A stretch of DNA of 11,710 bases, taken from contig JBEGVZ010000055.1 in NCBI GenBank assembly GCA_041178085.1, positions 1 through 11,710 on the forward strand. The letters are read 5' to 3'. Each line of letters opens with the position of its first letter. Within the stretch, counting starts at the first letter, position 1. Position numbers and translations under genes: made by a program. Source of the stretch: Pseudomonadota bacterium (GTDB lineage Bacteria > Bdellovibrionota_B > Oligoflexia > Oligoflexales > RGVZ01). Below are positions 1-10,692 of the stretch, piece after piece. Under the pieces are notes generated by a model. It was not told the origin of the DNA, made no database searches, and saw nothing but the letters and a program-made list of their open reading frames with translations.

Positions 1-44
1 GGGCCTGCGTGGTCCAAAGTCGGTTTCCTTGGCGAAGAGGGCAT
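1..44 (-). CDS. Possible 5' end of a divergent gene running off the left edge (MPSSPRKPTLDHAG...)
   Basis: Minus-strand ATG at 44-42, preceded by purine-rich AAGAAGAGAA. The frame is open to the window edge but too short to identify. Confidence 0.25.
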   Translation of the reverse strand, partial: MPSSPRKPTLDHAG

Positions 45-121
45 TTCTCTTCTTGAACTATGCCCACGGATCCACCATTAAGGCACGGACGGCATTTGGC
101 GTCAATGCGGCAAAAACAGGC

Positions 122-1828
122 ATGGGACAGGATTCAATGACTCCCGGGCAGACCGGAACAAGCATCGCCCACGGGGAAACCATCCATACGGATCACCTGG
201 TCATCGGGACCGGGATCGCCGGGCTCATGCTTGCTTTGAAACTTGCCCGGCATGGACGCGTTCTGGTCATTGCCAAGGGTTCCCTGGAAGACAACAACAC
301 CTGGATGGCCCAGGGTGGCATCGCCTCGGTTCTGGACAACGCAGATTCCTTCGAAAACCACGTACGGGATACGATCGCGGCAGGTGCTGGCCTTTGTCAC
401 CCGCCCGTGGTCCGCATGGTCGTCGAGAACGGCCCGCGCCTTATCCGCGAGCTGATCGATATCGGAGTCCGCTTCACGCGGACGGGCGACGAACCCGGTT
501 CGAACTATCATCTGACCCGTGAAGGCGGACATTCCCACCGGCGCGTCATCCACGCCGACGACCTCACCGGCAAGGAAGTTTTGAGTGCGTTGATCCGGGC
601 AGCCAAGGAGCAGCCTTCGATACGCATCCTCGAGCACCAGATGGCTGTGGACTTGGTGACGAGCAACAAATTTGGTCCCCAGGACCGTCGTGCCGGTTTC
701 GCGGCCCCAGAGTGCTTTGGGGCCTACGTGATGGACCGGGCGACGCGTGCGGTTTACCTGGTACAGAGCCCGCGGACTTATTTATGCACGGGTGGGCATG
801 GCAAGGCCTACCTTTATACTTCGAACCCGGACAGCGCGACTGGTGATGGCCTGGCCATGGCCTGGCGTGCCGGCTGCCGGATTGCGAACCTTGAATTCAT
901 GCAGTTCCACCCGACGTGCCTTTTTCACCCGCGGGCCAAGACTTTTCTGATATCCGAGGCGGTCCGGGGTGAGGGTGGAGTGCTCCGGGACCAGCAGGGT
1001 CGCTCGTTCATGGAGGCCTGGCACCCGATGGGGTCGCTCGCACCGCGTGACGTCGTCTCCCGTGCGATCGACGCCGAGTTGAAGAAAAGTGGTGCCTCCA
1101 ACGTGTTTCTAGATATCAGGCACCTTGGCGAGGAAAAACTGCGCCGCCTGTTCCCAAACATCTACCAGACCTGCCTTCAGTTCGGGATCGACATGGCGCG
1201 GGACATGATCCCGGTGGTGCCTGCGGCTCATTACAGTTGCGGTGGAGTTGCCGTGGACGACTCCGGGCGCACGGGCATTAGCGGTCTTTACGCCCTGGGT
1301 GAAGTCGCCTGTTCAGGGCTTCACGGAGCCAATCGCCTGGCTTCGAACAGCCTGCTCGAAGCCCTTGTTTACGCGGACCGTGTCGCTTCCGATGTGACGT
1401 CCGATTTGTGCGGAGATATCTCATCGGGTGCTGCAAGTGTCGCCAAGGTCGAGGCACAGGAACACGCCATTCCCGCCTGGGACAAGGGGAGTGCGGTGCC
1501 GCCGGACGAGCTGGTTGTACTTTCGCACAACTGGGACGAGATCCGTCGCTTGATGTGGCACTACGTGGGGATCGTCCGCAGCGAAAAAAGATTGAAGCGG
1601 GCCCTGAGCCGGATTGCGGCCATCAGGGCGGAGCTCGACGAATACTACTGGAACTACGAATTGACGGAGCAGCTGCTCGAAGTCCGCAACCTGGCCCTTG
1701 TGGCATGGCTGACAGTCCGGTGCGCCATGGCGCGCAAGGAATCTCGCGGCATCCATTTCACCATAGACCATCCCCGGCCGGACGAACGCCTGGCTGGCCG
1801 CGACACCATCATGGTGTCGGCGACTTGA
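122..1828 (+). CDS. nadB: L-aspartate oxidase (FAD-dependent, de novo NAD biosynthesis)
   Basis: FAD motif VIGTGIAG, plus MAQGGIA, TREGGHSHRRVIH, EFMQFHPT, LISEAVRGEG, LAPRDVVSRAI, AHYSCGGV, GLHGANRLASNSLLE and ESRGIHF. The start is probably ATG 122 or ATG 137 (CAGGA upstream) rather than TTG 29. Confidence 0.96.
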   Translation: MGQDSMTPGQTGTSIAHGETIHTDHLVIGTGIAGLMLALKLARHGRVLVIAKGSLEDNNTWMAQGGIASVLDNADSFENHVRDTIAAGAGLCHPPVVRMVVENGPRLIRELIDIGVRFTRTGDEPGSNYHLTREGGHSHRRVIHADDLTGKEVLSALIRAAKEQPSIRILEHQMAVDLVTSNKFGPQDRRAGFAAPECFGAYVMDRATRAVYLVQSPRTYLCTGGHGKAYLYTSNPDSATGDGLAMAWRAGCRIANLEFMQFHPTCLFHPRAKTFLISEAVRGEGGVLRDQQGRSFMEAWHPMGSLAPRDVVSRAIDAELKKSGASNVFLDIRHLGEEKLRRLFPNIYQTCLQFGIDMARDMIPVVPAAHYSCGGVAVDDSGRTGISGLYALGEVACSGLHGANRLASNSLLEALVYADRVASDVTSDLCGDISSGAASVAKVEAQEHAIPAWDKGSAVPPDELVVLSHNWDEIRRLMWHYVGIVRSEKRLKRALSRIAAIRAELDEYYWNYELTEQLLEVRNLALVAWLTVRCAMARKESRGIHFTIDHPRPDERLAGRDTIMVSAT

Positions 1829-2393: not shown

Positions 2394-3407
2394 ATGGGGT
2401 ATATTCTTGTCATGGTTGAGTTTTTGAGAAGAATTTTTTCCGGAAGCAAGAATTACAACGTTGGGCGCCTCGTCGACCGCCGCGTTTGTGATGGTCGCCC
2501 TTTTGGCGAAATCGGGGCACCTCAGTTCGACATCATCTGTGATATCGACAAGACCTACCTTGAAACAGAATTCGAAACGGTGGCGGACCTTGCGCGCACC
2601 GCCCTCGAAGACGCCGGTGACAAAGTCACGGTCGCCGGAGCCAGTGACGTCCTGATGGCGGCAAGGTGGGCTGCAGCCAGCCCATCCCCGAATGGGCTCC
2701 ATTTTGTTTCCTCGTCCCCGCCCCAACTGCGGCGCAAGCTGGAGACGAAACTCGCCCTGGACGGGCTGGACTGGACCAGCGACACCTTCAAGAACCAGGC
2801 TTATAACATTCGCAAGCGACGGCTCGGTTTTCTTCGTCATCACGTGGCCTATAAATCCCTGGCCATCCTTAATGTGGTCAACGCACGTGGTGCCGGGGGG
2901 CGTTACATCATGATTGGCGATAACGCCGAGTCAGACCCGGTGGTCTATGCCGGGGTGGCACGTCTGGTGAAGGGGGTGATTGATCCCACACAGTTCCGCG
3001 CCCATCTGGTGGATGCCGGGGTGCAGGCCGAGGAGCTCGGGCAGATCGATGCGGTGGCGGAGAAAGCCTGTGGCTCAGGTGAAGTTGCTGGAATATTCAT
3101 TCGCAAGGTGCCCGGTCCAAGGGGCCTGCGTCCACTGATCCAGTTGCCCGGCACCTGGCCGCAGATCCATGTGTTTCGCAATTTCTTTGAAGTGGCCCTG
3201 GGCCTGCTCGATGCCAAGGTGTTGCCACCTTCAGCCAAGCTGATGGTGGACTTGGCCGGGGCGTTGCACAACGCCTCATTCATTCCGGTTTTGGACTTGG
3301 CCGGATTGCTCGAGAAGCATGGCGGGACGGCAGAAGTTCCCGGGGTGGCAGCCGCCTGTCGCGACGCAGCCCTTTTGTTGCGCGCGAAAATTCCCGCCAG
3401 CGTCTGA
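2394..3407 (+). CDS. HAD-superfamily phosphatase, App1/DUF2183 (phosphatidate phosphatase APP1 catalytic domain)-like
   Basis: Motif I ICDIDKTY (DxDxT, 2541-2555), motif II HFVSSSP, conserved Lys region (AYKS), motif IV MIGDNAESDP (GDNAESD at 2916-2936). Start is ATG 2394 (AAGGA upstream) or ATG 2412. Confidence 0.8.
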   Translation: MGYILVMVEFLRRIFSGSKNYNVGRLVDRRVCDGRPFGEIGAPQFDIICDIDKTYLETEFETVADLARTALEDAGDKVTVAGASDVLMAARWAAASPSPNGLHFVSSSPPQLRRKLETKLALDGLDWTSDTFKNQAYNIRKRRLGFLRHHVAYKSLAILNVVNARGAGGRYIMIGDNAESDPVVYAGVARLVKGVIDPTQFRAHLVDAGVQAEELGQIDAVAEKACGSGEVAGIFIRKVPGPRGLRPLIQLPGTWPQIHVFRNFFEVALGLLDAKVLPPSAKLMVDLAGALHNASFIPVLDLAGLLEKHGGTAEVPGVAAACRDAALLLRAKIPASV

Positions 3408-3424
3408 GCCTGTTCAACTGATGA

Positions 3425-4180
3425 TCACGAGGGATTCTGCGGCACGATTGCCGGGTATTCCACTTTCAGGTCGACACCGCTGATTTGCCGGCTCAAGGAA
3501 GTGTGCACAAGGAATGCCGCCATCGATGCGGCAGCTGCTGCAGGAAGCCCGGCTGCGTGGATGTTGGAAATGCAGTTCCTTTGCGCATCGGTTTTGCCTC
3601 GTCCCGGACCCCACGTGAAGTAAACGCTCAACGACTCTGCCGTGGCCAGGCCTGGGCGCTCGCCGATCAAAACGAGAACCGATTTTGCCTGCAGCGTTTC
3701 TCCGATTTCATCACCAAGTGCAACCCGCGCGTGACGTGCGAGGACAACCTCGTTCACGCGCAAGCCCTTGTCTGCAAGGTTCCTGATGAACGGCAGGCAG
3801 AAGCCGGTTGCGTTCCGGTGCACAGCGTTCGCAGAAAGTCCGTCCGCGACGACCAGTGTGCAATCCCCGGGAGGAGCCTTGCTCGATGCGCGCAGGGTTG
3901 CCACCGAGTTGCTGGAAAGCCTGCGTCCCAGATCTGGATTGAGCAGAAACTCCTGCTTGTCGCGACAATTGGATTCCACTTCAAAAACATGTACCCCGGA
4001 CTGGACCAGGTTCGCCGCAATATCGCGGAAGTCGACATCCAGCCAGACGGCGTCCCGCGCCCGGGAGTGGGCCAGGCGGAAGTCCAGCAATTCCCTGGTC
4101 GGAACAGAATGACCAGCGCGACCCAGTGCGATCCGGGCATGGGTCAGTTTACGCAGGTCTTCCCACGGATCGTGTTTCAC
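3425..4180 (-). CDS. eutC: Ethanolamine ammonia-lyase light (beta) chain
   Basis: DPWEDLRKLTHARIALGRAG, LAHSRARDAV, PDLGRRL, VADGLSA, RVALGDEIGE, LIGERPGL, DAQRNCISNI. GTG start overlaps the eutB TGA (GTGA at 4180-4177). Confidence 0.96.
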   Translation of the reverse strand: MKHDPWEDLRKLTHARIALGRAGHSVPTRELLDFRLAHSRARDAVWLDVDFRDIAANLVQSGVHVFEVESNCRDKQEFLLNPDLGRRLSSNSVATLRASSKAPPGDCTLVVADGLSANAVHRNATGFCLPFIRNLADKGLRVNEVVLARHARVALGDEIGETLQAKSVLVLIGERPGLATAESLSVYFTWGPGRGKTDAQRNCISNIHAAGLPAAAAASMAAFLVHTSLSRQISGVDLKVEYPAIVPQNPS

Positions 4181-5592
4181 GCTTGCCCCTTCGGCAGCAA
4201 GTTGTGCGCGGCTTGCATGAGCCGCGAACGCGAAGCGGCGGGCAGCAGGCGTCCGCTGTCGTCGTGGACTCCCATCTTGATCAGCCAGGCTTCGAACTCC
4301 GGCGCCGCGCGCAAGTTGAGCGCACGCCGCACGTACTGGGCATCGTGAAACGAGGTCGACTGGTAATTGAGCATGATGTCATCCGCGCCTGGCACGCCCA
4401 TGAAGTAATTGCAGCCGGCGACTGCCAGCAAAGTCAGGAGTGTATCCATGTCGTCCTGATCTGCCTGGGCATGGTTGGTGTAACAAACGTCGCACCCCAT
4501 CGGCAGGCGCAGCATCTTTCCGCAGAAATGATCCTCAAGTCCTGCCCGGATGATTTGCTTGCCATCGAACAGGTATTCCGGGCCAATGAAGCCAACAACC
4601 GTGTTTACAAGAAAGGGATCGAACAGACGGGCCAGGCCATAGGCCCGCGCTTCGAGAGTTTGTTGGTCCAATGCTTGTCGGCCTGCGCCATCTTGACGGA
4701 AATGAGCCCCAGCCGACAGGCATGAGCCCTGTCCCGTTTCGAAGTACATGACTTGTGGGCCGCCTCGCCTCAACGCCAAGGCAGCATCCTGTGCCTCCCG
4801 CAGCAGCGAGATCGTCACCCCGAAGCTCTTGTTTGCAGCCTCTGTTCCGGCGATCGACTGGAAAACCAGGTCCACCGGTGCGCCCTGGGCGATCGCCTCG
4901 ATCTGGTTGGTGACATGACCAAGGACGCAGGACTGGGTCGGCACTCCGAGGCCGTCAATGATCCGGGACAGCAAGTGTTGCAACTCAATCATCCTTGCAA
5001 CGCTGTCCGTCGCCGGGTTGATGCCGATCACCGCATCGCCGCAGCCATACATCAATCCGTCGATCGTGGATGCCGTGATGCCGGCCGGGTCGTCGGTGGG
5101 GTGGTTGGGTTGCAGCCGGATTGCCAGATGTCCCTTCCCGCCAACGGTGCAGCGGAAGCGTGTCTGCACACAGGCCTTCGCAGCTACGGCGATCAGATCC
5201 TGGTTGCGCATGATCTTGGCGGCCGCGGCGACCATTTCCGGCAACAGGCCGGGTGCGATTGCCGCAAGGGCCGCATCGTCCGTCTGGTGCTCCAGAAGGA
5301 ACTCGCGAAAGCCGCCCACATCAAGATGGGCAATTTTCTGGAAGGCAGACTGATCCCAGGCGTCGCAGATGGCGCGGGTTACTTCATCGGATTCGTATGG
5401 AACAAGTGGGTTGTCGGCAAATTCCTTGAGGGGCGTCCCGGCCAGGCAGATTTGTGCAGCCACACGTTCCTCTTCCGAGGCGGCTGCCACCCCGGCAAGA
5501 ACGTCGCCTGACCTGTGCGGCGTGGCTTTGGCCATGATTTCGGCCAGGTTCCTGAACCGCCAGGTTTTGTTGCCAATGATGGTCGATCTCAC
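4177..5592 (-). CDS. eutB: Ethanolamine ammonia-lyase heavy (alpha) chain, AdoCbl-dependent
   Basis: AKATPHRSGDVLAGVAA, RLQPNHPTDD, GDAVIGINPA, DLVFQSIAGTE, MYFETGQGS, NTVVGFIGPEY, GLEDHFCGK, CYTNH, DDIMLNYQSTSFHD. GTG start overlaps the flagellin TGA (GTGA at 5592-5589). Confidence 0.97.
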   Translation of the reverse strand: MRSTIIGNKTWRFRNLAEIMAKATPHRSGDVLAGVAAASEEERVAAQICLAGTPLKEFADNPLVPYESDEVTRAICDAWDQSAFQKIAHLDVGGFREFLLEHQTDDAALAAIAPGLLPEMVAAAAKIMRNQDLIAVAAKACVQTRFRCTVGGKGHLAIRLQPNHPTDDPAGITASTIDGLMYGCGDAVIGINPATDSVARMIELQHLLSRIIDGLGVPTQSCVLGHVTNQIEAIAQGAPVDLVFQSIAGTEAANKSFGVTISLLREAQDAALALRRGGPQVMYFETGQGSCLSAGAHFRQDGAGRQALDQQTLEARAYGLARLFDPFLVNTVVGFIGPEYLFDGKQIIRAGLEDHFCGKMLRLPMGCDVCYTNHAQADQDDMDTLLTLLAVAGCNYFMGVPGADDIMLNYQSTSFHDAQYVRRALNLRAAPEFEAWLIKMGVHDDSGRLLPAASRSRLMQAAHNLLPKGQA

Positions 5593-6518
5593 CCCATGAT
5601 TCCCAGCAAATTGGTCGTCAGGAGTGAACTTACGTTGCCCTGGGCAAGAAGGGAAGTGGCTGCGTGGAGCAGGATCTTGGTCCGGGCGTAGTTTGAGGCT
5701 TCCTTGGCGAAATCAGTGTCTGCGATGTTGGATTTCGCAGCGGCAAGGTTTTCCTGATACACGTCGGTGAAGTCCATGGCACGCTGCATGCGCTGCTGTA
5801 ACGCGCCAAAAACCGAGCGCTGCTCAGTCAGGCGCGCCAAAGCTTCATCAAAAACTGTGGAATAGGTGGAATCTTGCGGAATCAGGATGTCGGCTACGTC
5901 CGAGACTGAAATTCCGTCATCGTCCGTCCCGATCAGCAGCTCCCTTGCGCTGTTGATGCCGAGGCCCTCGGTCGTTGCCAGGACGTTCTTGAATCCCTCG
6001 AAGGTGATCGTGTTGACATCTTCTCCCGCCAGACCGTCTTCCCCGGGTACGGGGTCACCCAGGCGGAAAACCAGGTTTTCAGGTGCGGTTGGATCACTGC
6101 CATTCAGCAGCGGAATGCCATTGTAAGTGGTCGTCGTTGCGATGCGGTTGATTTCGTCGTGCAGAGCCTCGTACTCGATGAACAAGTAACGACGGTCCCG
6201 GTCCGTGATGGTTGTGTTGGTGGCTGCGACGCCGATTTCCTTCATCCGCAGGACGATGTTATTGACTTCATTGAATGCGGACTCCGCCGTCTGCAGCATG
6301 CTGGAAGCATCGCTGACCTGCCTTTTTGCCGCCATCAAGCCCCTGATCTTGAACTCAAGGGATTCCGAAATGGCACGCTCGGAGGGACGGGGGTCTTGTT
6401 TGGTGAAGACAGTTCCCGACGAAAGCTTCTCGAGGGCGTCCTGGTTGGCCTCCTGGGCCTTCCTCAGGTACCGCTCGAGGGTCATCGAATTGGATTTGTC
6501 ACCGACATTGACGCCCAT
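5589..6518 (-). CDS. Flagellin-family protein (divergent, short variable domain)
   Basis: Flagellin_N features: LEKLSSG, SMLQTAESAFNEVNNIVLRMKEI, EINRIATTTTYNGIPLLNG. Flagellin_C features: RSVFGALQQRM, ENLAAAKSNIADTDFAKEASNYARTKIL, LLAQGN. SD-like CAGGA upstream of ATG 6518. Confidence 0.92.
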   Translation of the reverse strand: MGVNVGDKSNSMTLERYLRKAQEANQDALEKLSSGTVFTKQDPRPSERAISESLEFKIRGLMAAKRQVSDASSMLQTAESAFNEVNNIVLRMKEIGVAATNTTITDRDRRYLFIEYEALHDEINRIATTTTYNGIPLLNGSDPTAPENLVFRLGDPVPGEDGLAGEDVNTITFEGFKNVLATTEGLGINSARELLIGTDDDGISVSDVADILIPQDSTYSTVFDEALARLTEQRSVFGALQQRMQRAMDFTDVYQENLAAAKSNIADTDFAKEASNYARTKILLHAATSLLAQGNVSSLLTTNLLGIMG

Positions 6519-6530
6519 AACCTGTCCTGT

Positions 6531-8375
6531 TCACTGTACGGGGAATTCCACCTGCGGTAATTTGGCCTCCGGGGCCTCTCGTTCAATTGCAGGGGACGGT
6601 CCTTTGCTCATTTTCGCACTTTCTTCCATTGCAAGCACCCTGAGCGCAAACTCATCGATCATATGAACTTTTTGCTGAACGCTGATACGCACGGAATTGG
6701 CCAGTGCGCGGCGTGCGGCTCCGTCCTCTTTCCGGACCAGGCCGCGGGTCAGGCTGACCAACCCTTCGGTCTTGACGGCGGCAGCACTGGTTGCATGTTG
6801 CAGGCGCTGGCTGTTTCCGGCTGCGTTGCTGGCCAGGATGCGAAGTTCTTGCACATTTGCATGGGTGCGGGTCGCGTTTTGGTTGATCATCTCGCCGGTG
6901 ACACTGAGATGTGCCGCTTCGGTCGCAATCCGCTGGCTGGCCTTGATCGTGTTGGCCATGGCGGCCTGGATTTCGCGGGCGACAGCCCCCTGGTCAAATT
7001 GCGGTGAGCCTGTGGTCGTTGTCCTGTGCACCGACTCCAGTCTTTGGATCATGTTCAATGCGGCAAAGCGAACTTCCCCGGTGGTCTGGGCCATCGTCCC
7101 CGCCATCTTTGCGAGCGAGACGTTGTAGCCCGCAAGTCTTTCCGCCGTCTTTTGCAGATGTTGCTCGCGGGCCTGGTATTCGTCGAGGGTCCTCGATGTT
7201 GTGCCGGCTGCACGTTCGATCGCAAGGGCAAGCCCTGACGCCATGTCACGGGCGGCGGCAAGAATGGTCGATGCTTCCGTAAGGTTTGCCGCTTCTTCAT
7301 CGAGCAAGTGTGGAACCCTAGCGGACCCTGGCCCGTTGATGCTATCGGCCGTGGCCGCGAAGTTGAGGTTCACCTGAAGGAGCTTCACGATTTCGGCCAG
7401 CGAATCGAGCAAGCCCCGCAACGCAGTTGCCTTGCCATCGAGCGCAGAGATTATCTCAATGCACGAGGCGGATGGGTTAGTGCTGACAGCAGTGGGGAGG
7501 GTTGCAGAGAACGCCTCAACACCGGACTGTCCGAACCCGGTTGCATTGGCCGAGGTCCGGAATGCAAGCAGTGTTTTCTCCAACTCAGCGACCAGCAATT
7601 TAAGTTCCGTCGCGACATCGATGGCGTTCTTGGATGCTCTCTCGTGGTTGCTCGAAGCGGCCAGCTGGATCGCTTGCAGCGTGCCGGCTGCCTGGGTGAG
7701 CGCCTGCGCTTCACCGGTGATCGTTGCCAGATCCCTGGCATGCATGGCGATGTGCTCACTCTGGAAGCGGGCTTGTGCCTCAAGCGCAGCCAGTTTCTCC
7801 CGGTATCCAGCGATTTCTTCGATGGTCTGTTGGGCTTCTTTCTGCAGCGAATCGATCTGGGCCAGAGCGGAAGCCTGGGCCTCGGTGATCCGGCGCAGCC
7901 TGCCTTGTTCAGCACCTGGTTCACCACTGTCGGTACTGTAGGCGTTGGCAAGCTTGCCTGTAATGTCCGCGATGTCTGTGGCTTGCTGGCGGATCGAACT
8001 TGCGACGGATCCGATGGACGTCTTTCGCTTCCTTCCTTGTGTGACGCTGCCTGAATAGGGGTTTTCGAAGTCGAGTTCGAAAAGCGCCATCGAAGCTTCT
8101 CCCGCAACTTCGTCAGCGCCGGGGCCAACTTGTTTGCGCAAGAAAGTCATTGTGGTCAGGATCGAGACAAGACCCAGCGCACAGACAATCTGCAGCCAGT
8201 CGCCGGCGTTGGCCGGTCCCTTTCCGGACAGGTCGTGAGCAATCACGATCGCCAGCAGGATGGACATCACAAGCGCAACAACCAACCACGCCCCCATCGC
8301 GCCCGAGCTGGATCGCGCCGGGTGTGACAGGGCTTCGTCGTGCGCTTCGTTGTGATGTGCCTTGCTGTTCGCCAC
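6531..8375 (-). CDS. Two-TM membrane protein with a long Ala/Gln-rich coiled coil; degenerate methyl-accepting chemotaxis protein (MCP)-like
   Basis: GGAGG (8384-8380) before GTG 8375. Hydrophobic segments AWLVVALVMSILLAIVIA and WLQIVCALGLVSILTTMTFL flank a very short loop. Segment 7400-7269 aligns by eye with the MCP hairpin-tip motif. Confidence 0.75.
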   Translation of the reverse strand: MANSKAHHNEAHDEALSHPARSSSGAMGAWLVVALVMSILLAIVIAHDLSGKGPANAGDWLQIVCALGLVSILTTMTFLRKQVGPGADEVAGEASMALFELDFENPYSGSVTQGRKRKTSIGSVASSIRQQATDIADITGKLANAYSTDSGEPGAEQGRLRRITEAQASALAQIDSLQKEAQQTIEEIAGYREKLAALEAQARFQSEHIAMHARDLATITGEAQALTQAAGTLQAIQLAASSNHERASKNAIDVATELKLLVAELEKTLLAFRTSANATGFGQSGVEAFSATLPTAVSTNPSASCIEIISALDGKATALRGLLDSLAEIVKLLQVNLNFAATADSINGPGSARVPHLLDEEAANLTEASTILAAARDMASGLALAIERAAGTTSRTLDEYQAREQHLQKTAERLAGYNVSLAKMAGTMAQTTGEVRFAALNMIQRLESVHRTTTTGSPQFDQGAVAREIQAAMANTIKASQRIATEAAHLSVTGEMINQNATRTHANVQELRILASNAAGNSQRLQHATSAAAVKTEGLVSLTRGLVRKEDGAARRALANSVRISVQQKVHMIDEFALRVLAMEESAKMSKGPSPAIEREAPEAKLPQVEFPVQ

Positions 8376-8421
8376 GAGACCTCCACGCCCCTGCCGTTCG
8401 CAGGCAGGGAGCACGAAAGGT

Positions 8422-8448
8422 ATATCGGTGGACTTGGCTTGAGATTGA
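8422..8448 (-). promoter_or_regulatory. Putative sigma28 (FliA) promoter TCAA-N15-ACCGATAT
   Basis: Minus strand reads TCAA tctcaagccaagtcc ACCGATAT, versus consensus TAAA-N15-GCCGATAA. Spacer is exactly 15 nt with the CCGATA core. It is intergenic, upstream of MCP-like and flagellin genes. Confidence 0.7.
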
Positions 8449-8506: not shown

Positions 8507-9595
8507 TCATTGACTAGAATTTGTTTTTTCAGCAACAGTCCATTGCACGGTTCCCTCGGCCGTATTGCCGGCAAAGTCGCGTGCGATGATACGGGCTTCG
8601 TGCCGCCCCGGCTTGTCAGGGAACCGCCTGCGACCGTCCTTGACAAAGCCGATATCGATGGTCAGGCGGCGGCAAGTGTAATTGCCGCAGGTCATGTCGG
8701 GAACGAATAGCTCTTCAACGTGTCGTTCCGGCGTGGTTGGATCGGGTAGTGTCTGAAAGTCCCACACCACTTCCGGGGTTCCACCGTCGATCGCCACTTC
8801 CACGCGATGTGGGGGAACTACATATTTGTCGTGCAGGATCAAATCGTGAATCGTTGCGTGGATGGAGTAGTCACCTTCCACTGGGCGGTCTCCCCAGTCC
8901 CGACCACCCTTGAGCACTCCGCTGGCGATGATCGCAGGTGCCGAGTTGTCGTTCAGTTCATCCAGGAACATGAAGGGACTCAGGTAACTTGCGCCGGTCC
9001 CCAAGACGTTGAGGTGCACGTGGTCGTATCGTTCGCCGAACGATGAAACGCTCCAGCGGTAGATTTCGCCGATGGTGGTTCCAGGCGCAATTTTGGCACC
9101 GCTGCGCCAGGCATTCCAGATCGCCGAAGGAATCGATTCCTTTTCCACGTGATGGTATTGCCAGAGGTATCCTTCATCATCCAGCACGGCGACTTCCCAG
9201 TAGGCGGGATTGCCGGGCATGTAATTCTCGATGTTGACGACTTTGCCGCCTGCTGATGCTACGACGGGAGTTCCCGCATCACCCCGGATATCCAGTCCGT
9301 GATGAAAATAGGGTTCTCCACCGTAATACTGATACGAGGCGTTCGTGTGCCCGATTGACAGCAGGGGGAACGGCCAAGGGTGTCGTTGTGTGGAAGTCGC
9401 GTCAGATCCGGGGGTGCCGGGGATTTTGCCTGCAGGCAGATGGGCAAACTTCAGGATCCTTTGGCGTTCCAGAACAGGGTCCATGCAGCCGGCATTGGTT
9501 TCCGCCGCCGTATTTGCAGCGAATAACGGAGTTGCCGTTGTAAGGATTACAAAGAGGTTTGCGGCAAAGGCTACGGAGATTCTGGAAAGTCCCAT
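8507..9595 (-). CDS. Secreted M23-family (LytM-like) zinc metallopeptidase with a C-terminal beta-rich domain
   Basis: Signal peptide (..TATPLFA|AN). HxxxD motif YFHHGLDI, GTPVVASAGGKV, YHHV, HxH motif DHVHL. C-terminal ARDFAGN is typical of Ig-like domain ends. GGAGG lies 8 nt before the ATG. Confidence 0.9.
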   Translation of the reverse strand: MGLSRISVAFAANLFVILTTATPLFAANTAAETNAGCMDPVLERQRILKFAHLPAGKIPGTPGSDATSTQRHPWPFPLLSIGHTNASYQYYGGEPYFHHGLDIRGDAGTPVVASAGGKVVNIENYMPGNPAYWEVAVLDDEGYLWQYHHVEKESIPSAIWNAWRSGAKIAPGTTIGEIYRWSVSSFGERYDHVHLNVLGTGASYLSPFMFLDELNDNSAPAIIASGVLKGGRDWGDRPVEGDYSIHATIHDLILHDKYVVPPHRVEVAIDGGTPEVVWDFQTLPDPTTPERHVEELFVPDMTCGNYTCRRLTIDIGFVKDGRRRFPDKPGRHEARIIARDFAGNTAEGTVQWTVAEKTNSSQ

Positions 9596-9707: not shown

Positions 9708-10148
9708 ATGAGAAGAATCGTCATTTTGCTGGCCGCCCTGTTTGTCACGTCTCCTGTGCTTGCCGATGGGGTTTATGAAACCGAGGCCATGAGGCAAATT
9801 GCCCGCAAGGCCGCCGTGATCGAGTCGCTCGAGGTTTCCCCAACCCTTGGCGGGATCAATCCGGATGCCTTTGCCTATGTGATCAAGGGTTTGGTTCAGA
9901 CGGGCACCAATCGTTGTGATGCCGGTGGCAGGAAGATCGAAATCCGGACGAAAATCGCGGGTCAGGACCTGCTGGTATATGCCACGGTGACCAAGGCGCC
10001 CCAGGAAGACACGCGCGTTTGCACGATGGAATACGATCCCGTCATGGCTTCATTCGAATTTACCGTCCGTGGTTACCGCTCCAAGGTGGATCAAATGGTG
10101 ATCGTGAACGTCGATCGGGAAAGAAGCTACGAGGGTGTCCAGCCGTAA
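9708..10148 (+). CDS. Secreted hypothetical protein (146 aa) with two Cys and a Kazal/SSI-like CTMEYDPV loop
   Basis: AAGGAGG (9696-9702) before ATG 9708. Signal peptide MRRIVILLAALFVTSPVLA. The ORF-track start at 9345 overlaps the M23 gene and is not credible. Confidence 0.85.
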   Translation: MRRIVILLAALFVTSPVLADGVYETEAMRQIARKAAVIESLEVSPTLGGINPDAFAYVIKGLVQTGTNRCDAGGRKIEIRTKIAGQDLLVYATVTKAPQEDTRVCTMEYDPVMASFEFTVRGYRSKVDQMVIVNVDRERSYEGVQP

Positions 10149-10327: not shown

Positions 10328-10633
10328 ATGAATTCCAAGTATCTGATTTTAGCTACCTTTTTGCTGGCATCCTGTGGCAGCGAGCCAAAAAAGGGCAGCA
10401 GCTCACCGCCTCCGTCCAAGCCGAAACCAACTCCAACTTCGACCCCGGAGCCGCCAATGACTCCGCAGGTTTCGACGCCAGCAGTGGTTCCGCCGCCGCC
10501 GCCGCAATATGCACCGCCGGCACCGCAAGGCGGTCCCCAAGTGGACCAGACGGAATGCCCGAACGGCCCAGTTAGACGCTGGCTCTACAATGTGTTCCAC
10601 AAGGAAGATTGTCCGCCACTCGCTAACGAATGA
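10328..10633 (+). CDS. Small proline-rich lipoprotein with a C-terminal Cys-x17-Cys loop
   Basis: Lipoprotein signal MNSKYLILATFLLAS|C (lipobox LASC). GAGG SD at 10319-10322. Pro/Ser/Thr-rich linker. Followed by an intrinsic terminator. Confidence 0.85.
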   Translation: MNSKYLILATFLLASCGSEPKKGSSSPPPSKPKPTPTSTPEPPMTPQVSTPAVVPPPPPQYAPPAPQGGPQVDQTECPNGPVRRWLYNVFHKEDCPPLANE

Positions 10634-10657: not shown

Positions 10658-10692
10658 GGACCCGGAATCCCAGAGATTCCGGGTCCTTTTTT
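10658..10692 (+). terminator. Rho-independent terminator
   Basis: 12-bp perfect stem GGACCCGGAATC / GATTCCGGGTCC, 5-nt loop, followed by TTTTTT, 24 nt after the lipoprotein stop. Confidence 0.92.

Follow-up and report, generated by a model that had tools for sequence, protein, structure and literature searches.

The DNA analysed here (the window) is a complete contig of 11,710 bases (C55) from a 3.0-Mb assembly, 96% complete, of a member of the order Oligoflexales, an uncultured aquatic relative of Bdellovibrio whose genome we label G000. A scan of the window for open reading frames (ORFs) found four consecutive ones on the minus strand (6531-8414, 5589-6518, 4177-5592 and 3425-4180), in which the two genes for ethanolamine ammonia-lyase follow one for a chemoreceptor-like membrane protein and one for a flagellin. 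The first gene likely starts at the GTG codon at 8375, preceded by GGAGG at 8384-8380, and its product (6531..8375) would then be a tip-less chemoreceptor-like protein of 614 residues with two N-terminal transmembrane helices (residues 27-45 and 61-79) and a long helical body; this 614-residue form is also present in the protein collection. It is followed by a divergent flagellin gene (5589..6518), eutB for the large subunit of the lyase (4177..5592) and eutC for the small one (3425..4180). The ORF coordinates confirmed the layout given in an initial annotation of this DNA, namely four co-oriented genes with a gap of 12 nucleotides (nt) at the first junction and GTGA overlaps at the second and third (5592-5589 and 4180-4177), where the start of eutB overlaps the flagellin stop and the start of eutC overlaps the eutB stop. 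Each of the four genes belongs to a known family or is likely to be a relic of one.

EutBC splits ethanolamine into ammonia and acetaldehyde in an adenosylcobalamin-dependent reaction. The products of eutB and eutC are full-length, adjacent and above the curated NCBIfam cut-offs (EutB, NF011649, 674.7 against 554; EutC, NF003971, 299.3 against 230), which places them within the ethanolamine ammonia-lyases. They aligned to solved EutB chains across residues 2-453 and to solved EutC chains across residues 4-238, and the EutB motifs RLQPNHP, YFETGQGS, NTVVGFIGPEY and GCDVCYTNH, which we take to hold active-site residues, agree with the solved chain. The host genome contains a PduO-type adenosyltransferase and 12 aldehyde dehydrogenase matches; microcompartment shell proteins (PF00936), EutA (PF06277) and the CobA/BtuR adenosyltransferase were not found in it. 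No gene for the Eat permease adjoins eutBC, and the best Eat match of the genome, which lies on another contig and scored 85 against a cut-off of 381.75 bits, is a generic amino-acid permease remaining at the old eut locus described below.

The first two genes of the run belong to an older layer that is shared across the order. The flagellin, which carries both the Flagellin_N and Flagellin_C domains of Pfam, is the seventh of the genome and a single-copy orthologue across Oligoflexales, with one match at E<=1e-60 in 75 of the 95 genomes. It is only 31-36% identical to its six paralogues, which share 42-58% with each other, and its initial label as divergent is thus well founded. In a survey of the best 67 of 80 orthologous flagellin loci (two unmapped by the script, several ending at contig edges), the gene directly upstream encoded a canonical methyl-accepting chemotaxis protein (MCP) in 44/67 and the tip-less form in 4/67 (48/67 together), so that the term pseudo-chemoreceptor, as first applied to the window gene, fits the position it holds. 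The commonest downstream neighbor was a gene for an APP1-like phosphatidate phosphatase, which in the window is convergent with eutC (2394..3407, plus strand; PF09949 above cut-off) and would form the far edge of the eutBC insertion; it stands directly after the flagellin in 5/6 genus relatives, the sixth (G001) having a di-haem gene there. Neither eutA, eutB nor eutC was found at any of the 67 loci within up to 5 kb on each side (three loci end without a further downstream gene), and the 11 metagenome loci examined of 19 retrieved had no eut gene. The usual layout in relatives was thereby shown to be a predicted sigma28-like site followed by an MCP gene, the divergent flagellin and convergent APP1, without eut genes. 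Elsewhere the place behind the flagellin is taken by genes of other kinds, such as the di-haem gene of G001 and the co-oriented CNNM and pgsA genes of G022 and G035, respectively.

Ahead of the run lies a candidate promoter of the sigma28 (FliA) type, TCAA-N15-ACCGATAT (8422..8448, minus strand), with a predicted transcription start near 8414, the spacing to +1 being taken from measured Bdellovibrio promoters. This is the sole match in the window, yet one or more matches also turned up in 24 of 200 shuffles; the motif is thus weak by itself, and its support comes from conservation in relatives. Under a scoring matrix that took the sigma28 consensus as its starting point and was then trained on 41 MCP upstream regions from other genomes, the site reached 14.6 bits, the best in the window; the training regions averaged 14.1 bits versus 6.7 for shuffles, a circular comparison because the same regions trained the matrix. 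Five of five held-out genus regions scored 12.0-14.9 bits with the site in place, values reached by 0-1 of 100 shuffles, and equivalent sites were present in 4/4 genus relatives tested. With TAAA-N15/16-CCGATA-type boxes kept in place and fliA (C119:77795-78469) above cut-off in the host genome, both marks of a predicted FliA promoter are present, and the sigma28-type head proposed initially was upheld. Across the host genome, 118 of 1,239 run heads (9.5%) carry a sigma28-like site of at least 12 bits, many of them before genes with lipoprotein-like signal peptides, which suggests a broad predicted FliA regulon, as in Bdellovibrio. One further site of 12.2 bits lies on the plus strand of the window (10066-10117) and starts at 10091, about 240 nt above a small proline-rich lipoprotein-like gene (10328-10633).

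The terminator scan gave no match at the junctions, nor on the minus strand between 8448 and the eutB start, whereas each eut gene contains a weak minus-strand match, that of eutB at 4511-4491 and that of eutC near its 3' end at 3535-3515, which qualifies the claim that the run has no internal terminator. No sigma28 site was detected for eutB itself, the 350 nt upstream scoring 2.7 bits at best, and a site of 8.9 bits at 5956 falls inside the shuffle range. Within 700 nt above eutB there was no strict sigma54 site and one loose match, at 6120, and the promoter scan returned no minus-strand sigma70-type match above the gene. As eutB kept no upstream DNA, transcription from 8448 with translational coupling would be the simplest route of expression, and eutBC are likely to be co-transcribed from the predicted promoter there. 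The upstream neighbor, a co-oriented M23 peptidase gene (8507..9595, minus strand; PF01551) in the same position in 4/4 genus relatives having upstream DNA, ends only 58 nt above the -35 box, and since the intervening hairpin has no U-tract (z -1.34), read-through from further upstream may contribute.

In contrast to the receptor-flagellin pair, linkage of that pair to eutBC is nearly unique to this lineage. Although eutB occurs in 26/95 genomes of the order, none of the 21 other genomes with both eutB and the flagellin has them on one contig, and all six other genomes of the genus lack the link; a conserved eut-flagellin gene order was accordingly rejected, as none appeared in the genomes, flagellin loci or metagenome loci surveyed. 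The separate-gene eutBC occupies six different neighborhoods among 11 genomes of the family. In two trees, the window EutB grouped with those of G004 and G006 (support 97/97 and 97/95), inside a clade of the genus (95/94 and 94/91), and the GC content at third codon positions (eutB 0.72, eutC 0.66) is similar to that of the neighbors; tree and composition together led us to reject a recent import from a distant taxon. In G002 and G004, eutB lies after msrA in a run with an amino-acid permease gene. The permease and msrA are both present on C91 of the host genome, where msrA (C91:3706/3714) is followed, in mid-contig, by an unrelated convergent gene. The grouping of EutB with its own genus and the empty site after msrA point to a move within the genome, and a recent relocation of eutBC from there into the flagellin-APP1 slot is the most likely origin of the predicted operon.

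Two other elements of these genomes touch on ethanolamine. A second and distant eut type occurs in five genomes of the family (G001, G002, G003, G005 and G012; L074-L078), four of which belong to the host genus. There eutA precedes a single gene that joins eutB to eutC; its product has about 740 residues and shares about 40% identity with the window EutB. The fused gene was not found in G000, where the neighbors of the G001/G002 copy adjoin on C6. A group II decarboxylase dependent on pyridoxal phosphate is encoded near the old eutBC site of G002 and G004, at a distance of a few genes (L067:7846-9372; G000:C114:1814-3265). A serine decarboxylase would yield ethanolamine, but nothing in this analysis shows the enzyme to be one, and the idea that it is an ethanolamine-supplying sphingosine-phosphate lyase was dropped, its best solved matches being group II amino-acid decarboxylases.

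Independent contigs bear on both the reality and the age of the layout. Seven of 20 listed metagenome runs were compared with the window, a possible source run not being among the seven. Run X2 contains a 99%-identical strain with a single contig across 4162-8356 (43 differences) and another across 3226-3606, and run X6 has a single contig across 4797-5943 with 118 differences in 1,147 letters, that is, a relative of about 90% identity sharing the flagellin-eutB junction. The eutC/APP1 end was bridged by X2 (3226-3606), X13 (3207-3453) and X6 (3375-3619, with a short side of 33 letters), and runs X7, X8, X10 and X12 had no piece across 5590 among the matches listed. The misassembly that the initial annotation had wished to see excluded at 5590 is thus countered by the X2 and X6 bridges. 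The X6 contigs left a gap here when 90% likeness was required, which hinted at a strain with an empty site; this idea was overturned at 85% by a diverged contig spanning the junction. The insertion would therefore predate the split of the host species from the relative of about 90% identity, where 18/18 readable eutB differences (among 40 of 205 rows) are synonymous, which argues that eutB kept working after the move. In X2 the synonymous to non-synonymous counts were 23:5 for the first gene, 5:1 for the flagellin, 3:1 for eutB and 0:2 for eutC (among 40 of 118 rows).

The nature of the first gene was approached by several comparisons. Its product had no Pfam match, PF00015 included, and the AARAG motif of the signalling-tip hairpin, invariant in nine aligned canonical orthologues, is absent from it and from 4/4 genus orthologues; its conservation peaks at residues 101-200 and 501-614 and not at the tip. 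In a model of low confidence (pLDDT 55) the chain turns at residues 347-354, close to the canonical tips of the orthologous MCPs at about 343-357. A fold search with this model ranked chemoreceptors 2-4, but with TM-scores of only 0.13-0.25, and the feature matches in the atlas were mostly to MCP families, all below 0.9. Comparison by hhalign with MCPs gave 1.7% and 8.3%, too low to show sequence homology, and under a hidden Markov model of 42 orthologous MCPs the protein scored 3.8 bits versus 12.6 for its own reverse. Proof from sequence that the gene is an MCP was thus abandoned, since the sequence comparisons did not pass controls. The tip-less family itself is small, with seven matches among 1.84 billion representatives, all at E<=1e-30 and with no weaker tail of distant relatives. 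Position, promoter, length, the two transmembrane helices and the turn in the low-confidence model nevertheless favor a likely descent by decay from the MCP that holds this position elsewhere, and the fold and atlas matches point weakly the same way.

A parallel loss of the receptor's likely partner lends further weight to this reading. Sixty-four Oligoflexales loci were matched to genomes by coordinates, nine being set aside for contig edges or unclear calls, and an order-wide CheA was counted at 50% identity or more to the copy of G008. Among these incomplete and related genomes, this CheA was present in 36/41 with a canonical MCP, in 0/10 with another gene upstream of the flagellin, and in 0/7 of the host genus. 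At the locus matching that of the full CheA of G008, the host genome has instead an ORF of 431 residues (G000:C64:9686-10978; L199:1687-2979, minus strand) that retains only a CheW-like domain, similar to the end of the order-wide CheA, with no match to the Hpt, dimerisation or ATPase domains; orthologues of this relic occur in 5/6 genus relatives. G003 kept the tip-less protein, and neither the canonical MCP nor the CheA was found there. As its tip is gone and its likely partner is reduced to a kinase-less relic, the product of the first gene would be unable to signal in the way of a normal chemoreceptor. No sign links this gene to ethanolamine. The decay of receptor and CheA is older than the arrival of eutBC and independent of it, and it is a sturdier finding than any wiring of eutBC.

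Taken together, these data lead us to propose, with a probability of roughly 0.55, that eutBC relocated onto the order-wide receptor-flagellin pair and are co-transcribed from the sigma28-type promoter, where they are more probably tolerated as a passenger than selected for a role in motility. The starting point would be the layout usual in relatives, with the sigma28-like site, the MCP gene, the divergent flagellin and convergent APP1, without eut genes. The eutBC pair native to the genus would then have moved from behind msrA to the junction between flagellin and APP1. Given the overlapping stop and start codons and the lack of promoter space, ribosomes ending the flagellin may restart on eutB and then on eutC, and the enzyme would be made whenever FliA fires. 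The predicted EutBC would split ethanolamine, with ammonia nitrogen as the likely gain, since no microcompartment, EutA or Eat was found, and the first gene would remain without normal chemoreceptor signalling.

Several observations weigh against this proposal. The layout has lasted through about 10% nucleotide divergence, an outcome as compatible with selection for the new control as with tolerance. On the side of function, the EutB end branch of 0.22 versus about 0.10 for its sisters may mean relaxed constraint, as may the fact that both listed X2 differences in eutC change a residue. On the side of control, a sigma70-type promoter inside the flagellin gene would escape the scans used, and the upstream regions of the other six flagellins all stay below 12 bits (best 10.0), so that the matrix is not a full description of the FliA sites of the host. 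Many relatives are known from fragmented assemblies. Finally, sigma28-like sites of at least 12 bits precede 5/25 other eut loci (the two strong ones in G005, 17.0, and G012, 15.5, then G011 13.8, G069 12.3 and G014 12.0 bits); four of the 25 lie at contig edges, and G068 and G081 were left out because the script found no eutB ORF. If motile-phase control were important, other eut loci should carry such a site. Against the run heads of the host genome the excess has a p-value of 0.08, with kin not independent and several genes scored in some runs, and a site also precedes 6 of the 121 remaining run heads of those loci, so we regard it as no more than suggestive.

Those five sites speak for the alternative that survives best, in which FliA is a broad regulator of the swimming or hunting phase and eutBC were brought under it, by insertion here and by gain of sigma28 sites elsewhere, so that motile cells take nitrogen from membrane-lipid ethanolamine. 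The many FliA-type run heads before lipoprotein-like genes, as in Bdellovibrio, agree with it, as do the retention of the layout with synonymous eutB changes in the relative of about 90% identity and the adjoining phosphatidate phosphatase-like gene. That neighbor, however, is older than the eutBC insertion and lies on the other strand, and 20/25 other eut loci have no site, among them the likely ancestral msrA locus of the genus (best 7.0 bits, G002). Moreover, the EutB proteins of G011 and G014 are nearly identical, yet their sites lie at different places, and the excess is not significant over the host background. The initial annotation had proposed this reading, holding that ethanolamine catabolism is wired into the motile regulon and could serve a predator or scavenger. 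The first claim is not supported by a linkage shared, in the synteny comparison, only by the relative of about 90% identity, and a layout nearly confined to one lineage is largely the outcome that the annotation itself had named as refuting. The predator link gained no direct support, the word ethanolamine occurring 0 times in the three searchable supplementary files, and no ethanolamine entry in the tables, of the Bdellovibrio attack-phase paper (PMC3627812). Selected control is, in our judgment, improbable.

A more ambitious version, which we find doubtful, would make the FliA of Oligoflexales a hunting-phase master switch that has repeatedly captured eutBC for prey-lipid nitrogen, by docking here and through new sigma28 sites elsewhere, while the host operon was repurposed as a non-signalling module of tip-less chemoreceptor, kinase-less CheA relic and orphan flagellin.

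Less credible again is expression of eutBC driven mainly by their neighbors, either by a promoter concealed within the coding region of the flagellin or by transcripts that run on out of the M23 gene, with little contribution from FliA. The distance of 2.8 kb between the sigma28-type site and eutB, the co-oriented M23 gene without a U-tailed terminator, the loose sigma54-like match at 6120 and the sigma54 control of short eut loci elsewhere (PMC11101070) all speak for it. On the other hand, the insertion brought no upstream DNA of its own, the scans found no strict sigma54, sigma70 or sigma28 site above eutB, and no terminator-like match interrupts the minus strand from 8448 to the eutB start. 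An assembly chimera at 5590 or 3420, which a single short metagenomic contig and the absence of the layout from the other 130 genomes of the class might suggest (though the junction pattern could match near-identical DNA only), is very improbable and was rejected, as contigs from other studies cross 5590 (X2 and X6) and the eutC/APP1 end (X2, X13 and X6) and the gene order of relatives matches both flanks.

Comparison with known systems sets the promoter-capture reading of eutBC in context. Klebsiella pneumoniae, Pseudomonas aeruginosa and Acinetobacter baumannii have a short eut locus, eat-eutB-eutC, which in Klebsiella serves mainly nitrogen use under NtrC-RpoN control (PMC11101070). The window resembles that locus in having eutB-eutC without microcompartment genes and differs in having no adjoining eat or regulator gene and no strict sigma54 site found; its eutBC have no upstream region of their own and are attached to a flagellin gene. 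The long eut locus differs in that its shell genes and EutA were not found in the host genome. In Bdellovibrio bacteriovorus, a FliA motif (TTAAG-N16-CCGATA) stands at 92/140 mapped attack-phase promoters (PMC3627812); the same promoter type precedes MCP, flagellin and many non-flagellar genes there and here, whereas starts were mapped there and only the motif is available here, the two organisms belong to different orders, and the tables for Bdellovibrio name no ethanolamine gene. With the PF00015 MCPs found before Oligoflexales flagellins, the first gene shares position, promoter, similar length, two transmembrane helices and, in the low-confidence model, the place of a hairpin turn, but it lacks the AARAG tip and its conservation peaks elsewhere. 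The divergent flagellin recalls the flagellin-homologous proteins of Vibrio (PMC6692518) as an extra flagellin-like gene beyond a closely related set, with no orthology claimed. No description of eutBC under sigma28 control, or of this module, was found in the literature searched, a body of work in which subscription journals are mostly outside coverage.

If co-transcription holds, the window would document, with a date, how the genes of a metabolic enzyme came under a flagellar sigma factor by relocating; sister genomes display the pre-insertion layout and the host genome the empty old site. Because the eut-flagellin link is confined to few close relatives and has an accidental look, its importance is lower than first hoped, and we read the layout above all as a wandering enzyme pair that captured a promoter. 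Of wider bearing are the order-wide MCP-flagellin module and what amounts to a natural experiment on the decay of chemotaxis, since genomes in which the partner CheA was not found have either lost the receptor gene (10 genomes) or kept it in tip-less form (the host genus).

Other features of the window were recorded alongside. The APP1-like protein carries a DIDKT motif, and its gene is the usual neighbor of the divergent flagellin, convergent or co-oriented depending on the lineage; a CDP-alcohol phosphatidyltransferase gene is often near it. The minus-strand gene at 1809-2333 encodes a conserved protein with no Pfam match and two CxxC pairs at its N-terminus, located between nadB and APP1 in many relatives, and nadB itself (L-aspartate oxidase, 29-1828, plus strand) scored above its cut-offs. 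The opening 121 bases of this contig recur on C71. Toward the other end, a strong terminator-like hairpin with 12 pairs and a T-run (10658-10686, plus strand) separates the lipoprotein-like gene from a radical SAM/SPASM gene.

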